Assembly (NCBI GenBank): GCA_936924235.1
Contig: CAKZHN010000179.1
Coordinates: 15,588 to 79,587, forward strand
Length of the DNA stretch: 64,000 bases
From: an uncultured Rhodoplanes sp.
GTDB taxonomy: Bacteria > Pseudomonadota > Alphaproteobacteria > Rhizobiales > Xanthobacteraceae
Reading direction: 5' to 3'
Of this stretch, positions 51,339 to 63,962 are shown one piece after another (the first letter of the stretch is position 1; the number at the start of each line of letters is the position of its first letter). The notes below the pieces were generated by a model, which saw nothing but the letters and a program-made list of their open reading frames with translations, was not told the origin of the DNA and did not search any database. A program made the translations under genes and the position numbers.

Positions 51339-52127
51339 TCACGGCGCGCCTTTGCGCCGCCGCCATCCCATGAACGACAGCAGCGCGCGGCGCGGCACCA
51401 GCCGCGACAGCTGCGCCGTCACCCGATTGTCAGCGCCCGGAATGACGACGCGCTGGCCCCGCATCAAGGCGTCATAGCCGTCATGGGCGACGCGCTCGGC
51501 CGAGCGCGCCAGGAATTTCGGGAAGTAGCCCTCCGGCATGCTGGCGCGGGCCTGGAACTCGGTCTCCACCGGGCCGGGGCACAGCGCCGTGACGCGGACG
51601 CCCTTCGACTTCAGCTCCTGATGCAGCGCCTCGGAGAACGACAGCACGTAGGCCTTGGTGGCGTGATAGACCGCCATGCCCGGGCCGGGCATGAAGCTTG
51701 CGACCGACGCGACATTCAACAGGCCGCCGCGGTGGCGCGCCATGCTGTCGGCAAACCGCAGCGACAGCTCGGTCAGCGCGCGGACGTTGAGATCGACCAT
51801 CGCGAGCTGCTCGTCGCGATCGTGATCCAGAGCGTCGCCGACGAGGCCGAAGCCCGCATTGTTGACGAGGTACTGCACCTCGAGGCCTGCGGCGCGCAAT
51901 TCGCCTTCGATCTGCGCGGCCGCCTCGGGCCGTCCGAGATCAACTGCGATGATGTGGGGCCGCGGCCGGCCGGCCGCTTCGATCGCATCTGCAACAGCGG
52001 CAAGCTGCGGCTCCCGCCGCGCCGTGAGCACCACGGCATGGCCGCGCGCAGCGAACACGTGCGCCAGCGCCGCGCCGATGCCGGCGGAGGCACCGGTAAC
52101 CAGGACGATGGGCTTGGGCTCTGCCAT
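51339..52127 (-). CDS. SDR-family oxidoreductase
   Basis: TGASAGIG Rossmann motif and a YxxxK active site. Confidence 0.75.
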   Translation of the reverse strand: MAEPKPIVLVTGASAGIGAALAHVFAARGHAVVLTARREPQLAAVADAIEAAGRPRPHIIAVDLGRPEAAAQIEGELRAAGLEVQYLVNNAGFGLVGDALDHDRDEQLAMVDLNVRALTELSLRFADSMARHRGGLLNVASVASFMPGPGMAVYHATKAYVLSFSEALHQELKSKGVRVTALCPGPVETEFQARASMPEGYFPKFLARSAERVAHDGYDALMRGQRVVIPGADNRVTAQLSRLVPRRALLSFMGWRRRKGAP

Positions 52128-52165
52128 GGTCACGCGGGGAATGGGGTCACGCCAAGTTCGCGCCG

Positions 52166-52594
52166 CTACGGCGCCGCGAACTTCGCGATCACCTCTTGCG
52201 GGATGGGCTTCGATTTTATCTTTTCCGGATCGTCGGGATGCCGCGCGGCCCAGACCCGGGTGTCGAAGCACTCGACGCAAAGCTCGTTGTTGAGCGTGAT
52301 CCTGTGCTGCACGTCGAAGCTCGAGCGGCGGAACTCCACCACCTTGGTCTCGATCACCACGTCGTCGCCGAACTTGGTGGGCTTGAGAAAGCGCGCCCGC
52401 GTGTCGACCATCGGATAGCCTTCGAACTTGTAGTGCCGCGTGAACTGATACTTGCTCATGCCGAGCGCCTGCGAGAACAGCCCCGTGGTGCAGCTGTCGA
52501 ACATTGCGAAGTAGCGCGGGAAGAACACGATTCCGGCCGGGTCGCAATCGCCCCATTCGATGCGGGCGTGCCGGATATAGATCATCGTCCCCAC
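52166..52594 (-). CDS. Hot-dog fold acyl-CoA thioesterase (4HBT/YbgC-like)
   Basis: 142-aa 4HBT fold; GTG start at 52594 with an ATG alternative at 52585. Confidence 0.65.
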   Translation of the reverse strand: MGTMIYIRHARIEWGDCDPAGIVFFPRYFAMFDSCTTGLFSQALGMSKYQFTRHYKFEGYPMVDTRARFLKPTKFGDDVVIETKVVEFRRSSFDVQHRITLNNELCVECFDTRVWAARHPDDPEKIKSKPIPQEVIAKFAAP

Positions 52595-52634
52595 GGCTTG
52601 CTCCAGCTCTCTTGGGTCCAGCTCTTGGCGCGTC

Positions 52635-53396
52635 TCAGCGTGGCGCCATGCGCAGCGCCCCGTCGAGCCGGATCACTTCGCCGTTGAGATAATTGCTGCG
52701 CACGATGAACAGCACAAGGTCGGCGTATTCGCGCGGCTCGCCGAGCCGCTTCGGGAACGGCACCGAGGCGCCGAGGCTGTCCTGCGCGGCCTGCGGCAGC
52801 GCCTTCAGCATCGGCGTGCCGAAGATGCCCGGCGCGATCGCGGCCACGCGGATGCCGAACTGCGACAGCTCGCGGGCGGCCGGGATGGTCATCGCCGCAA
52901 CGCCTCCCTTCGATGCCGAGTACGCCATCTGGCCGATCTGGCCTTCGAAAGCCGCGACCGAAGCGGTCGAGATGATCACGCCGCGCTCCTGGTCGGCGAA
53001 CGGCTCGAGGTTCTGCATGTCGGCGGCGGCGAGCCGCATCATGTTGAAGGTGCCGATCAGGTTGATCGAGATCACCTTCTCGAAATCGGCGAGCGGCATC
53101 GGGCCGTCACGGCCGACCATGCGCTTGGCCGGGCCGATGCCGGCGCAGTTGACGAGGATGCGCGCGGCGCCGTGCTTGTCGCGGGCCTGCTTCAGGGCGG
53201 CGACCGCGCCGGCCTCGCTGGTGACGTCGCAATGGACCGCGATGCCGCCGATCTTGCTGGCCACGGCGGTCGCGCCCTCGATGTTGACGTCGAGGCAGGC
53301 GACCTTGGCGCCGGCCTTGGCCAGCGCCGCCGCGGTCTCGGCGCCGAGGCCTGAGGCTGCGCCCGTCACGATCGCGACGTGTCCTTTGGGATCCAT
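52635..53396 (-). CDS. 3-hydroxyacyl-CoA dehydrogenase, SDR type (HSD17B10 / FadB2x-like)
   Basis: VAIVTGAASGLG, NCAG and YSASKGG motifs. Confidence 0.8.
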   Translation of the reverse strand: MDPKGHVAIVTGAASGLGAETAAALAKAGAKVACLDVNIEGATAVASKIGGIAVHCDVTSEAGAVAALKQARDKHGAARILVNCAGIGPAKRMVGRDGPMPLADFEKVISINLIGTFNMMRLAAADMQNLEPFADQERGVIISTASVAAFEGQIGQMAYSASKGGVAAMTIPAARELSQFGIRVAAIAPGIFGTPMLKALPQAAQDSLGASVPFPKRLGEPREYADLVLFIVRSNYLNGEVIRLDGALRMAPR

Positions 53397-53402
53397 GAAA
53401 TG

Positions 53403-61945: not shown

Positions 61946-62900
61946 GATCATCGCAGGAGTTGCGTCCTCGCACGTGCCGGCGATCGGTGCGGCGATCGAC
62001 AACCATCGCACCGGCGAGCCGTACTGGCAGCGCGTGTTCGAGGGCTTCGAGCGCTCCAAGGAGTGGATGCGCAACGCCAAGCCGGACGTCTGCTTCGTGG
62101 TCTACAACGACCACGCCTCGGCCTTCTCGGTCGAGATGATCCCGACATTCGCGCTCGGCACCGCCACCGAATTCCCGATCGCCGACGAGGGCTGGGGCCC
62201 GCGTCCGGTGCCGGTGGTGAAGGGGCATCCGCAGTTGGCCGCACACATCGCCCAGTCGGTGATCCTCGACGAGTTCGACCTCACGCTCTGCAACAAGATG
62301 GAGGTCGATCACGGCCTCACGGTGCCGCTCAATTTGATGTTCGGCTCGCCGAAGGAATGGCCGTGCCCGATCATTCCGCTCGCCGTGAACGTGGTGATGT
62401 ATCCGCCGCCGACCGGCCACCGCTGCTTCATGCTCGGCAAGGCGATCAAGAAGGCGATCGAATCCTATCCCGAAGATCTCAACGTCGTGGTGTTCGGCAC
62501 CGGCGGCATGTCGCACCAGATCAGCGGCCAGCGCGCCGGCCTGATCAATTCGAAATTCGACCACGCCTTCCTCGACAACCTCACCAAGGACCCGCAGAAG
62601 CTCGTGCGCATGGACCATCTCGAATATATGCGCGAGGCGGGCGCCGAGGGCGTCGAGATGGTGATGTGGCTGATCATGCGCGGCGCGCTCGACGACAAGA
62701 TCGACGAGACCTATCGCTTCTACACGGTGCCGGCGTCCAACACCGCGGTCGGCCACATCATCCTGGAGAACCGCCTCAAGGGCGCGAAGAAGTCGGCCAA
62801 GCCCGCCGCCAAGGGCAAAAAGCCGGCTGCAAAGAAAGCCGCGTCGAAGCTCAAGCGCGCCGCCGCGCGTCAGAAAATTCAGCGCGTCCGCAGCAAGTAA
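61938..62900 (+). CDS. ligB: Protocatechuate 4,5-dioxygenase beta subunit, with a basic Lys/Ala/Pro-rich C-terminal tail
   Basis: [19 protein letters not shown]...[10 protein letters not shown]...WGPRPVP...FGTGGMSHQ matches LigB. GTG start overlaps the ligA stop. ~40-aa tail [40 protein letters not shown]. Confidence 0.85.
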
Positions 62901-62920
62901 GCTGTCGTCGCATTGTTGTC

Positions 62921-62985
62921 GTCATGGCCGTGGCATAGGCGAGCGAAGCGACGCCGTCCTTCGCAAGTCTAGTCCCGGCCATACC
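62921..62985. repeat. REP-like palindromic element, family C
   Basis: gtcatggccgtggcataggcgagcgaagcgacgccgtccttcg...cccggccat; related to 31820-31937. Confidence 0.5.
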
Positions 62986-63005
62986 GCTTAAAGGAGAAGG
63001 GTTCC

Positions 63006-63962
63006 ATGAAAATCTGTGTCGCCGGCCAGGGCGCCTTTGGTCAGAAGCATCTCGACGCGCTCAAGCGCATTTCCGGTGTCGAAGTCACCTCGCTGGTCGG
63101 CGGCAACCAGGACTCGACCGCGGCGATCGCCAAGAAGTACGGCATCCCGCACTACACCGGCGATCTCAGTGAGGGCATCAAGCGCGCCGACGCCGTGATC
63201 CTCACCACGCCGACCAAGATGCACTTCCGCCAGGGCGAGCAGGTGATGCGCGCCGGCAAGCACGTGCTGGTCGAGATTCCGGTGACCGACAGCGTCGAGG
63301 ACGCCGAGAACCTGGTGAAGATCGCCAAGGAGACCGGCGTCACCGCGATGGGCGGCCACGTCCGCCGCTTCAACCCGAGCCATCAATACGTGCACAAGAA
63401 GATCGTGGCCGGCGAGCTGAAGATCCAGCAGATGGACGTGCAGACCTATTTCTTCCGCAGAAAGAACATCAACGCCGCCGGGAATGCGCGGAGCTGGACC
63501 GATCATCTCCTCTGGCATCACGCCGCCCACACCATCGACCTGTTCCAGTATCAGGTCGGCGAGAACATCTCGGACTGCTACGCGGTGCAGGGCCCGATCC
63601 ATCCGGAGCTCAACATCGCGATGGACATGGGCATCGTGGCGAAGACCCCGTCGGGCTCGATGCTGACGCTGTCACTGTCGTTCAACAACGACGGCCCGCT
63701 CGGCTCGTTCTTCCGCTACATCTGCGACAACGGGACCTACAAGGCGTTCTACGACGACCTGTCGGACGGCAAGGACAACAAGATCGACGTGTCGAAGGTC
63801 GACGTGTCGATGGACGGCATCGAGCTCGAGGACCGCGAGTTCATCAAGGCGATCCAGGAGAAGCGCGAGCCGAACGGCAGCCTGCAGCAGGTGCTGCCGT
63901 GCATGCACGTGCTCGGCAAGCTCGAGAAGATCATCGACCCGCAGCGCAAGGCGCACGCGTAA
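63006..63962 (+). CDS. ligC: 4-carboxy-2-hydroxymuconate-6-semialdehyde dehydrogenase (Gfo/Idh/MocA family)
   Basis: MKICVAGQGAFGQKHLDALKRI Rossmann N-terminus; LigC-like length; position immediately after ligAB. Confidence 0.8.
   Translation: MKICVAGQGAFGQKHLDALKRISGVEVTSLVGGNQDSTAAIAKKYGIPHYTGDLSEGIKRADAVILTTPTKMHFRQGEQVMRAGKHVLVEIPVTDSVEDAENLVKIAKETGVTAMGGHVRRFNPSHQYVHKKIVAGELKIQQMDVQTYFFRRKNINAAGNARSWTDHLLWHHAAHTIDLFQYQVGENISDCYAVQGPIHPELNIAMDMGIVAKTPSGSMLTLSLSFNNDGPLGSFFRYICDNGTYKAFYDDLSDGKDNKIDVSKVDVSMDGIELEDREFIKAIQEKREPNGSLQQVLPCMHVLGKLEKIIDPQRKAHA

Follow-up and report, generated by a model that had tools for sequence, protein, structure and literature searches.

In this study, we analysed a 64,000-nucleotide stretch of DNA (contig CAKZHN010000179.1, positions 15,588 to 79,587; hereafter the window) and found an aromatic-acid catabolic supercluster, the source of which is an uncultured Rhodoplanes-like member of Xanthobacteraceae. 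It is a real and fairly ordinary cluster of a soil bacterium, and most likely converts plant hydroxycinnamic acids to benzoic acids and opens the ring of protocatechuate. The minus-strand operon encodes a DUF3237 protein, a crotonase (enoyl-CoA hydratase, ECH), an Fcs-type CoA ligase (FCS), a 3-hydroxyacyl-CoA dehydrogenase (HADH), a hot-dog thioesterase (TE), and a second short-chain dehydrogenase/reductase (SDR), named SDR2. The divergent plus-strand genes encode two periplasmic binding proteins, a PcaF-type thiolase, and LigI, LigA, LigB, and LigC of the protocatechuate 4,5-cleavage pathway (Table 1). Judging from the gene families and their order, we favour, with somewhat better than even confidence, a reading in which hydroxycinnamates are shortened by CoA-dependent beta-oxidation and protocatechuate then passes through the upper steps of 4,5-cleavage. 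All of the enzyme families and the overall chemistry are known, and the key genes have already been named by public pipelines; the cluster is a local rearrangement of known pathways and not a new pathway. Three things are particular to its clade: a cou-like operon and a PcaF-ligIABC operon are fused behind a shared control region, the cluster carries a tail of SDR2, a thiamine pyrophosphate (TPP)-dependent enzyme, and an amidohydrolase, and no regulator is linked to it.

An earlier note on this DNA had described the genes between 51,339 and 63,962. Coding frames were chosen by GC content at third codon positions (GC3), and assignments were made by Pfam, NCBIfam, and PDB-sequence searches; the gene content and coordinates given in that note were borne out, small corrections aside, and its interpretation was supported in part. 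However, functionally linked genes (the TRAP transporter, the TPP enzyme, and the amidohydrolase) reach down to about 41.2 kb, outside those coordinates. The GC content of the window is 62-69%.

Table 1. Genes and control elements of the catabolic cluster, with the matches on which each assignment is based (bit scores are followed by the value compared)
Feature	Position	Strand	Evidence
LigW/ACMSD-like amidohydrolase (Amidohydro_2)	41199-42218	-	best matches decarboxylases (3IJ6, LigW)
PRK08327-type TPP-dependent enzyme	42350-44104	-	NF006203 656 bits vs 456
TarPQM-like TRAP transporter (DctP, DctQ, DctM)	44287-47256	-	Pfam DctP, DctQ, DctM
Second classical SDR (SDR2)	51339-52133	-	Pfam adh_short 9.8e-43; under every NCBIfam cut-off
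Hot-dog thioesterase (TE), 4-hydroxybenzoyl-CoA thioesterase type	52166-52594	-	Pfam 4HBT_2 and 4HBT; PDB 5WH9 1.5e-14, 1BVQ 9e-14
SDR, type-II 3-hydroxyacyl-CoA dehydrogenase (HADH)	52635-53396	-	PDB 4XGN 5.4e-84, human HSD10 1e-73
AMP-forming ligase, Fcs/CouB-type, 626 aa	53403-55283	-	NF009232/PRK12582 839.4 bits vs cut-off 777, residues 6-621 of 626
Crotonase, CouA/DmdD-type, enoyl-CoA hydratase family PRK08150	55287-56090	-	NF006013 377 bits vs cut-off 232
DUF3237 (UPF0311), first gene of minus-strand operon	56174-56659 (start candidates 56632, 56650, 56659)	-	Pfam PF11578 9.5e-45
Divergent control region, about 80 nt: promoter-like TTGACC-17-TAAATT (56638-56666) and 17-bp palindrome CGCGCATTGCCTGCGCG (56681-56697)	56638-56697	+	
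Two tandem PF04392 (ABC_sub_bind) periplasmic binding proteins	56737-57726, 57723-58700	+	Pfam 4.2e-37, 3.8e-44
PcaF-type 3-oxoadipyl-CoA thiolase	58722-59927	+	TIGR02430 696 bits vs cut-off 597
LigI, 2-pyrone-4,6-dicarboxylate hydrolase (Amidohydro_2)	59961-60836	+	PDB 4D8L (Sphingomonas) 1.4e-101, full length
HbpS-like/DUF336 (GlcG-type), between ligI and ligA	60838-61332	+	Pfam PF03928 1.4e-25
LigA, protocatechuate 4,5-dioxygenase alpha subunit	61478-61945	+	TIGR02792 159 bits vs 108.6, NF009917 181 vs 173; Pfam LigA
LigB, protocatechuate 4,5-dioxygenase beta subunit	61938-62900	+	NF009903 484 bits vs 317; Pfam LigB
LigC/PmdC, 4-carboxy-2-hydroxymuconate-6-semialdehyde dehydrogenase (Gfo/Idh/MocA)	63006-63962	+	PDB 9AZO PmdC 2e-129; Pfam OxRdtase_C 5.8e-90

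Genes of the Minus-Strand Operon

Public annotation gives the homologues of the ligase the name feruloyl-CoA synthase; among isolates, Rhodoplanes sp. Z2-YC6860 (CP007440) is the nearest (90% identity). The ligase is also 54-55% identical to the CouB orthologues of Rhodopseudomonas and about 50% identical (over 97% of the length) to fcs of Ralstonia solanacearum, which is a neighbour of the genes for hydroxycinnamoyl-CoA hydratase-lyase (HCHL), vdh, and vanAB. Relatives of the enzyme have been studied genetically and biochemically (PMC3610893, PMC7797058). Thus, its membership in the Fcs/CouB family of hydroxycinnamate-CoA ligases is supported at the level of sequence, in agreement with the Fcs-like assignment made before.

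The crotonase, the true start of which is probably MAKKAS (giving 267 aa), is proposed as a candidate hydroxycinnamoyl-CoA hydratase. Its best solved relative is the enoyl-CoA hydratase 3HIN of Rhodopseudomonas palustris (3.7e-92), and DmdD (4IZB) was matched at 1.5e-63. Both catalytic glutamates of the crotonase family, aligned to Glu121 and Glu141 of DmdD (PMC3660561), are kept. Meanwhile, the identity to the HCHL of Ralstonia is only 27%, and the motif is GGGLE in the window versus GGAFS in HCHL (Glu versus Ser). The HCHL model NF006588, on which the Ralstonia HCHL scores 505 bits, was not among the best 25 of the 71 NCBIfam families matched by the crotonase. By these alignments the enzyme is not of the HCHL type, as the earlier note had said. 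However, its description there as a plain hydratase goes too far, since CouA is described in the literature as a deacetylating hydratase(/lyase).

The HADH gene lies directly 3′ of the ligase gene, and its product is proposed as a candidate aryl-beta-hydroxypropionyl-CoA dehydrogenase. The hot-dog protein is likewise proposed as a candidate aroyl-CoA thioesterase; its homologues, 48-54% identical, come after FCS or HADH in Rhodopseudomonas (at the position of RPA1788), Bradyrhizobium, and others. Both assignments agree with those made before. SDR2 was confined to the window's own clade among the loci compared.

The best PDB match of the DUF3237 protein is 4PUX (1.6e-34). It is closely followed, at 1.8e-33, by the R. 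palustris structure 3C5O, titled 'UPF0311 protein RPA1785', and a weaker match is PhnH (6JJS, 2.5e-5). A DUF3237 gene stands 5′ of the crotonase gene in the Rhodopseudomonas and Bradyrhizobium loci as well. CouA-type crotonases have DUF3237 proteins as conserved partners, that of R. palustris being RPA1785 (structure 3C5O). Only one enzyme with DUF3237 has been characterised, PhnH, a fungal hydroalkoxylase with a phenolic substrate (PMC11969235).

One might suppose that the module acts on an enoate that is not a phenylpropanoid (acrylate, a methylthioacrylate-type compound, or another unsaturated acid) and that the label 'feruloyl-CoA synthase' is an annotation carry-over. No close relative of the ligase has been solved or assayed (the top PDB match is a malonyl-CoA ligase, 1.4e-24), and the crotonase is related to DmdD. 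Nevertheless, the family-level homology of the ligase to CouB and Ralstonia fcs, both in hydroxycinnamate contexts, and the linkage to a TarP-like TRAP transporter, a 4-hydroxybenzoyl-CoA-thioesterase-like enzyme, and protocatechuate ring-cleavage genes make this supposition very improbable.

Ring-Cleavage Genes and the Divergent Control Region

The identities of LigI, LigA, LigB, and LigC are firmly indicated by alignment, and the assignments in the earlier note held in all four cases (Table 1). The gene order ligI-ligA-ligB-ligC is the same as that of pmdDABC in Comamonas. Between ligI and ligA lies the DUF336 gene, which that note had missed. Most of the related loci keep it at this position (L001, L008-L011, L092, and L093; the loci are introduced below), and a methyltransferase gene on the opposite strand is found there instead in L002 and L094. 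We know of no role of DUF336/GlcG-type proteins in 4,5-cleavage. In addition, the C-terminal tails of LigA and LigB (61860-61945 and 62775-62900) are rich in Lys, Ala, and Pro, basic in the manner of histone H1, and lie beyond the family models; the match of the LigB model stops near residue 278 of 320.

The two PF04392 binding proteins have twin-arginine N-termini (MKRRDAIKLL... and MRRRDVIAGL...), and no cognate permease or ATPase was found nearby. They had been described as interleaved with the lig genes, but both sit upstream of the thiolase gene, directly after the divergent promoter region. Sister loci have two CoA-transferase genes, or nothing, in their place.

Within 13 kb, nothing but the TTGACC-17-TAAATT element matched a sigma-70-like promoter. 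Together with the palindrome it is kept in seven loci, whichever gene comes first in the plus-strand operon, and the arms of the palindrome covary by compensatory changes across these seven related loci. The palindrome is perfect in one copy in the window, and a search for further operator copies in the window returned imperfect, chance-level matches only. The covariation of its arms suggests that the palindrome is a putative operator for a regulator encoded outside the window. The control region supports a predicted regulated operon running from the two binding-protein genes through the thiolase, ligI, DUF336, and ligAB genes to ligC, which is probably co-regulated with the divergent minus-strand operon.

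Conservation across Loci

To compare the cluster with its relatives, a profile of CouA-type crotonases was scanned against one genome per species. In total, 566 relatives were obtained, and the best 80 loci were fetched; Agrobacterium fabrum is outside these 80. Individual loci, those of the 80 and others, are cited below by L-numbers. The window proteins were mapped onto the fetched loci by tblastn, and several of the fetched contigs are short, so that gene content there is undecidable. The window's clade (76-100% ligase identity) includes Rhodoplanes (L001), contigs of metagenome-assembled genomes (MAGs; L002, L092, L093, L094, and L075), and metagenome contigs identical to the window (L003-L005 and L008-L011).

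The loci of this clade all keep [DUF3237]-ECH-FCS-HADH-TE-SDR2 with the divergent thiolase adjacent, and the interval from the promoter to the thiolase varies: it holds two binding-protein genes, two CoA-transferase genes, or none. At protein identities of 76-100%, the gene order is found again in Rhodoplanes sp. Z2-YC6860 and in several contigs from MAGs and metagenomes; the arrangement is not due to chance. The adjacency of thiolase and lig genes is conserved in this clade of Rhodoplanes-like Xanthobacteraceae. The earlier note had remarked on a PcaF-like thiolase next to lig genes as atypical; the thiolase is indeed of this type, but 'atypical' is overstated, for the adjacency is conserved across the whole clade.

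Outside the clade, the module varies. For instance, the Rhodopseudomonas loci (L012-L016) have TRAP-DUF3237-ECH-FCS-TE, a binding-protein gene, and further on a MarR gene, with HADH absent; the crotonase of L012 shares 97% identity with 3HIN. In Bradyrhizobium, as in many other loci, the HADH gene separates FCS from TE. Furthermore, of the 80 fetched loci, at least 14, from alpha- and betaproteobacteria, have ECH-FCS-thiolase followed by HADH and/or TE; nine of these have all five genes and with them a full set for beta-oxidation. In Terrarubrum, Azospirillum, and many Comamonadaceae and other betaproteobacteria, ECH-FCS is paired with an amidohydrolase gene, the product of which we infer to be a beta-ketoacyl-CoA hydrolase of the CouO/Atu1421 type (PMC9618137; bioRxiv 10.1101/160747). 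No homologue of this flanking amidohydrolase, which is equated with CouO/Atu1421 by inference, was found in the window by tblastn. From these variants across the 80 loci, the window module is one variant of a widespread and already recognised family.

Two contigs of the window's clade call for a remark. L003 (1-2563) was considered as an alternative arrangement, since its ligase is identical to that of the window and its thiolase is followed by two cupin genes and a FadB-like gene. However, it leaves the window sequence within the final 126 nt of the gene for the thiolase, and a paralogous fadA-like locus has probably been joined to it in a chimeric assembly. In L002, a long-read MAG contig, CoA-transferase and thiolase are called as one fused gene, MutS is split, and LigB is truncated, which are probable frameshift artefacts; its gene lengths are unreliable at face value.

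The Proposed Route

According to the favoured reading, the TarPQM-like TRAP transporter would import p-coumarate, caffeate, and ferulate, and the Fcs/CouB-type ligase would convert them to hydroxycinnamoyl-CoA thioesters. These would be hydrated by the CouA/DmdD-type crotonase and oxidised by the type-II 3-hydroxyacyl-CoA dehydrogenase to aryl-beta-ketopropionyl-CoA. A thiolase, for which the adjacent PcaF orthologue is the best candidate, would then split this compound into acetyl-CoA and aroyl-CoA, and the 4-hydroxybenzoyl-CoA-thioesterase-like hot-dog enzyme would liberate the benzoic acid. LigAB, LigC, and LigI of the divergent operon would take protocatechuate to 4-oxalomesaconate. As encoded, only caffeate would flow through the whole route, yielding protocatechuate directly and then 4-oxalomesaconate. 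PobA for coumarate, a vanillate demethylase for ferulate, and LigU/J/K must be encoded elsewhere. What the data show are the family identities, the conserved synteny, and the conserved promoter and palindrome; the substrates, the choice of beta-oxidation over lyase chemistry, and the enzyme that cleaves the C-C bond are deductions.

Several observations weigh against this proposal. First, the nearest characterised relative of the crotonase is CouA (about 56% identity to the Rhodopseudomonas orthologues), and R. palustris CouA (rpa1786) is described in two papers as a deacetylating enzyme of a non-beta-oxidative route with p-hydroxybenzaldehyde as the product (PMC3610893, PMC12366328). Second, the thiolase is a very strong PcaF orthologue by its matches (625 bits, E 6e-187, to the P. 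putida beta-ketoadipyl-CoA thiolase, PDB 6PCA, besides the equivalog model). It is only 38-40% identical to the thiolases within complete ECH-FCS-thiolase-HADH-TE operons of other taxa, and those miss the pcaF cut-off. Third, Bradyrhizobium clusters have HADH and TE and no thiolase within 10 kb. Fourth, PobA and the lower lig genes are missing: in the parts of the window examined (the open reading frames of 1-20 kb being only partly scanned), we found no ligJ/K/U, regulator, demethylase, PobA, HCHL, or aldehyde dehydrogenase gene. Finally, among the open reading frames scanned, no DNA-binding regulator family was found except a two-component response regulator (14222-14794), and two MarR queries gave no tblastn match in the window.

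The earlier note had reported the absence of ligJ/ligK, the demethylase, and any regulator, and this agrees with our searches. Beyond ligC, none of the Pfam families of LigJ/K/U type (PrpF, RraA, and Amidohydro_2) and no LysR-type gene occurs in about 9 kb of the window-identical metagenome contig L008, where a TctC receptor gene, a five-gene ABC system, and a MetE-like gene were found instead. In addition, MarR, HCHL, aldehyde dehydrogenase, CouO-like amidohydrolase, and CoA-transferase homologues had no match in the window by tblastn.

The first of these points leads to a lyase route as in R. palustris CouAB. The crotonase would both hydrate and cleave hydroxycinnamoyl-CoA to the benzaldehyde and acetyl-CoA, the aldehyde would be oxidised by an unlinked aldehyde dehydrogenase or conceivably by one of the SDRs, and HADH, TE, and the thiolase would serve side reactions or other substrates. 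Besides the kinship with CouA (3HIN), which the two papers treat as deacetylating and non-beta-oxidative, the related DmdD shows that the subfamily is capable of more than hydration (PMC3660561). The aldehyde dehydrogenase of R. palustris is itself unlinked (rpa1206, PMC12366328), so the absence of such a gene here is not decisive. However, an HADH gene inserted right after the ligase gene, as in the window, Bradyrhizobium, and many loci (often with a thiolase), and absent in Rhodopseudomonas with its reported non-beta-oxidative route, makes little sense for a lyase. A thioesterase of the 4-hydroxybenzoyl-CoA type needs an aroyl-CoA substrate, which is a product of the beta-oxidative route only, and the search of the window turned up neither an HCHL nor an aldehyde dehydrogenase. 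Together with the joining of the same module to a thiolase in other taxa and with a crotonase in which the two hydratase glutamates are retained and the identity to HCHL is only 27%, these facts favour beta-oxidation, and we regard the lyase route as unlikely. Nevertheless, because CouA is called a hydratase/lyase and because the thiolase is a PcaF orthologue unlike the in-operon thiolases, the beta-oxidative route is the best reading and yet unproven.

The Thiolase

It had been claimed that the window supplies every step of beta-oxidation. The families of the ligase, the dehydrogenase, and the thioesterase agree with this, but the role of the thiolase in side-chain cleavage is unproven for the reasons given above. 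The enzyme is a plausible candidate for thiolysis of aryl-beta-ketopropionyl-CoA. In the window's clade the thiolase is always divergent to the ECH-FCS operon, and this adjacency is kept in six independent loci despite differing intervening genes. In L093, for example, the thiolase still adjoins the ECH-FCS operon though it is 7 kb from ligI.

The alternative, a variant of the favoured reading that differs in one step, is that the enzyme is a plain 3-oxoadipyl-CoA thiolase of the beta-ketoadipate or phenylacetate pathway, placed here by supra-operonic grouping, and that the beta-keto thioester is cleaved by an unlinked thiolase or hydrolase. The thiolase passes the pcaF equivalog model and is highly conserved as PcaF, and in L093 it adjoins muconate-cycloisomerase-like genes. 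The cou-like clusters of Bradyrhizobium function without a linked thiolase; thus, thiolase adjacency is not required. In L002 and L094 it comes after two CoA-transferase genes. A canonical pcaIJF set was considered for the latter two loci and stays unproven, as their CoA-transferases have no NCBIfam match at the 1e-20 limit and therefore do not look like canonical PcaIJ. This, the invariant adjacency to the ECH-FCS operon, and the position behind the conserved divergent promoter/operator region speak against a plain PcaF role. The 4,5-cleavage route, with which the thiolase would be co-transcribed, needs no thiolase. We give the plain role a chance somewhat short of even. As to which enzyme cleaves the side chain, the adjacent PcaF orthologue and an unlinked thiolase appear roughly equally probable to us.

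Neighbouring Genes

The DctP, DctQ, and DctM proteins of the TRAP (tripartite ATP-independent periplasmic) transporter are 61, 67, and 76% identical, respectively, to those of the TRAP genes found ahead of DUF3237-couA-couB in Rhodopseudomonas. Coumarate, ferulate, and caffeate are ligands of TarP (PMC3610893), and the TarPQM-like transporter is a probable, predicted uptake system for hydroxycinnamates.

The TPP enzyme and the amidohydrolase are on the strand of SDR2 and are set apart from it by two inserted blocks, namely the TRAP transporter and a convergent three-gene block (47404-51335). The latter encodes a COMT-like O-methyltransferase (PF00891), an aryl-CoA ligase resembling benzoate/3-hydroxybenzoate-CoA ligases, and a 430-aa protein without a Pfam or NCBIfam match. 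Both Rhodoplanes and L092 keep this block, which has the look of an insertion separating SDR2 from the TRAP genes. In the L093 operon, SDR2, the TPP enzyme, the amidohydrolase, and MutS are contiguous on the same strand, and in L002 the amidohydrolase alone comes after SDR2. The two genes are probably the ancestral tail of the minus-strand operon and may be uncharacterised members of it. We also considered the amidohydrolase (41199-42218), the one Amidohydro_2 gene of the window besides ligI, as the missing LigJ. This was ruled out, for LigJ structures were matched at only 3.8e-5 and the protein resembles decarboxylases of the LigW/ACMSD type. Furthermore, it has no relation to the amidohydrolase found beside ECH-FCS elsewhere.

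A bolder proposal may be built on these genes. A true PcaF orthologue would have been recruited as an aryl-beta-ketopropionyl-CoA thiolase and wired to the 4,5-cleavage genes through the shared divergent promoter/operator, and the tail of SDR2, the PRK08327-type TPP enzyme, and the LigW-like amidohydrolase would encode, with DUF3237, an undescribed extension. This extension might, for instance, handle C6-C3 keto acids or ketones derived from lignin, or provide a lower route that depends on CoA and bypasses LigJ/LigK. We hold the proposal as a whole to be quite doubtful.

Some features lie further away. The GC content dips locally at 38000-42000 (0.62-0.63 versus about 0.66), where DUF1444-like, Peptidase_C26, and amidohydrolase genes lie between mutS and the catabolic cluster. 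In addition, three tandem receptors of the TctC family (Bug) adjoin mutS (32760-35852), and one more lies just past ligC in L008. If the two orphan PF04392 binding proteins are counted in, orphan periplasmic receptors have expanded greatly in this genome.

Significance

If the favoured reading is true, abundant soil Xanthobacteraceae have in this cluster a compact and co-regulated way of leading plant hydroxycinnamates, caffeate most directly, to meta-cleavage of protocatechuate. This would be useful for the annotation of soil metagenomes and for the design of lignin-valorisation chassis. The cluster also raises the question whether CouA-type (PRK08150) crotonases are hydratases or hydratase/lyases, for which the presence or absence of an adjacent HADH across taxa is a natural experiment. 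Further questions are the function of the conserved DUF3237 partner and the part of PcaF-type thiolases in aromatic side-chain cleavage. The answers to these questions would not overturn current understanding.

Comparison with Known Systems

By sequence similarity and gene order, the closest characterised relative of the minus-strand operon is couAB of R. palustris, not the systems of A. fabrum or Rhodococcus. The rpa1782-1794 region comprises tarPQM, RPA1785, couA, couB, RPA1788, couP, and couR (PMC3610893). The two clusters share DUF3237, the PRK08150-type crotonase, the Fcs-type ligase, and the hot-dog TE in the same order (the RPA1782-1788 core) and a homologous TRAP transporter; the identities are 56% for ECH, 54-55% for FCS, 48-51% for TE, and as given above for the transporter. 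However, the window adds HADH and SDR2, its TRAP genes are downstream and not upstream, and its cluster is joined to the PcaF-ligIABC operon. It is without CouP/CouSTU and the MarR regulator CouR, as judged by tblastn of MarR and CouP-like queries against the window. The R. palustris route is reported to be non-beta-oxidative and to feed the anaerobic benzoyl-CoA pathway. Meanwhile, the uncharacterised cou-like clusters of Bradyrhizobium type (L020-L033), with TRAP-DUF3237-ECH-FCS-HADH-TE, have the same enzyme set as the window operon. They differ in having their own CouP-like binding protein and MarR gene and in being without adjacent thiolase and lig genes, SDR2, and the tail of TPP enzyme and amidohydrolase.

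The earlier note had taken the Atu1415-1421 and Cou schemes as its model. This does not fit well, as no CouO-like homologue was found in the window and R. palustris couAB is nearer. For the A. fabrum SpG8-1b genes (Atu1415-1417 and Atu1421) and couLHTNOM of Rhodococcus jostii, the chemistry proposed is the one that we propose for the window, with a ligase, a hydratase, a 3-hydroxyacyl-CoA dehydrogenase, and lastly C-C cleavage to the benzoic acid (PMC7797058; bioRxiv 10.1101/315036). However, the cleavage is described there as the work of Atu1421/CouO, whereas the window offers a PcaF-type thiolase and a thioesterase. CouO is reported to be an amidohydrolase-type beta-ketoacyl-CoA hydrolase (PMC9618137), and Atu1421 is named a beta-keto-thiolase in one study (PMC7797058) and a hydrolase in another (bioRxiv 10.1101/160747). 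Furthermore, the A. fabrum cluster also encodes LigM/MetF and two regulators. The fcs-ech-vdh systems of Pseudomonas and Ralstonia use the same ligase family, with the identity to Ralstonia fcs noted above. However, they have an HCHL (NF006588) and an aldehyde dehydrogenase, whereas the window crotonase is far from HCHL and has no adjoining vdh.

Finally, LigI, LigA, LigB, and LigC of the Sphingobium sp. SYK-6 lig and Comamonas pmdDABC systems are all present in the window. The window represents the upper half only, without LigU/J/K, LigR, and a transporter, and differs from both systems in having the inserted DUF336 gene and, upstream and codirectional, the PcaF thiolase and the two PF04392 binding proteins.

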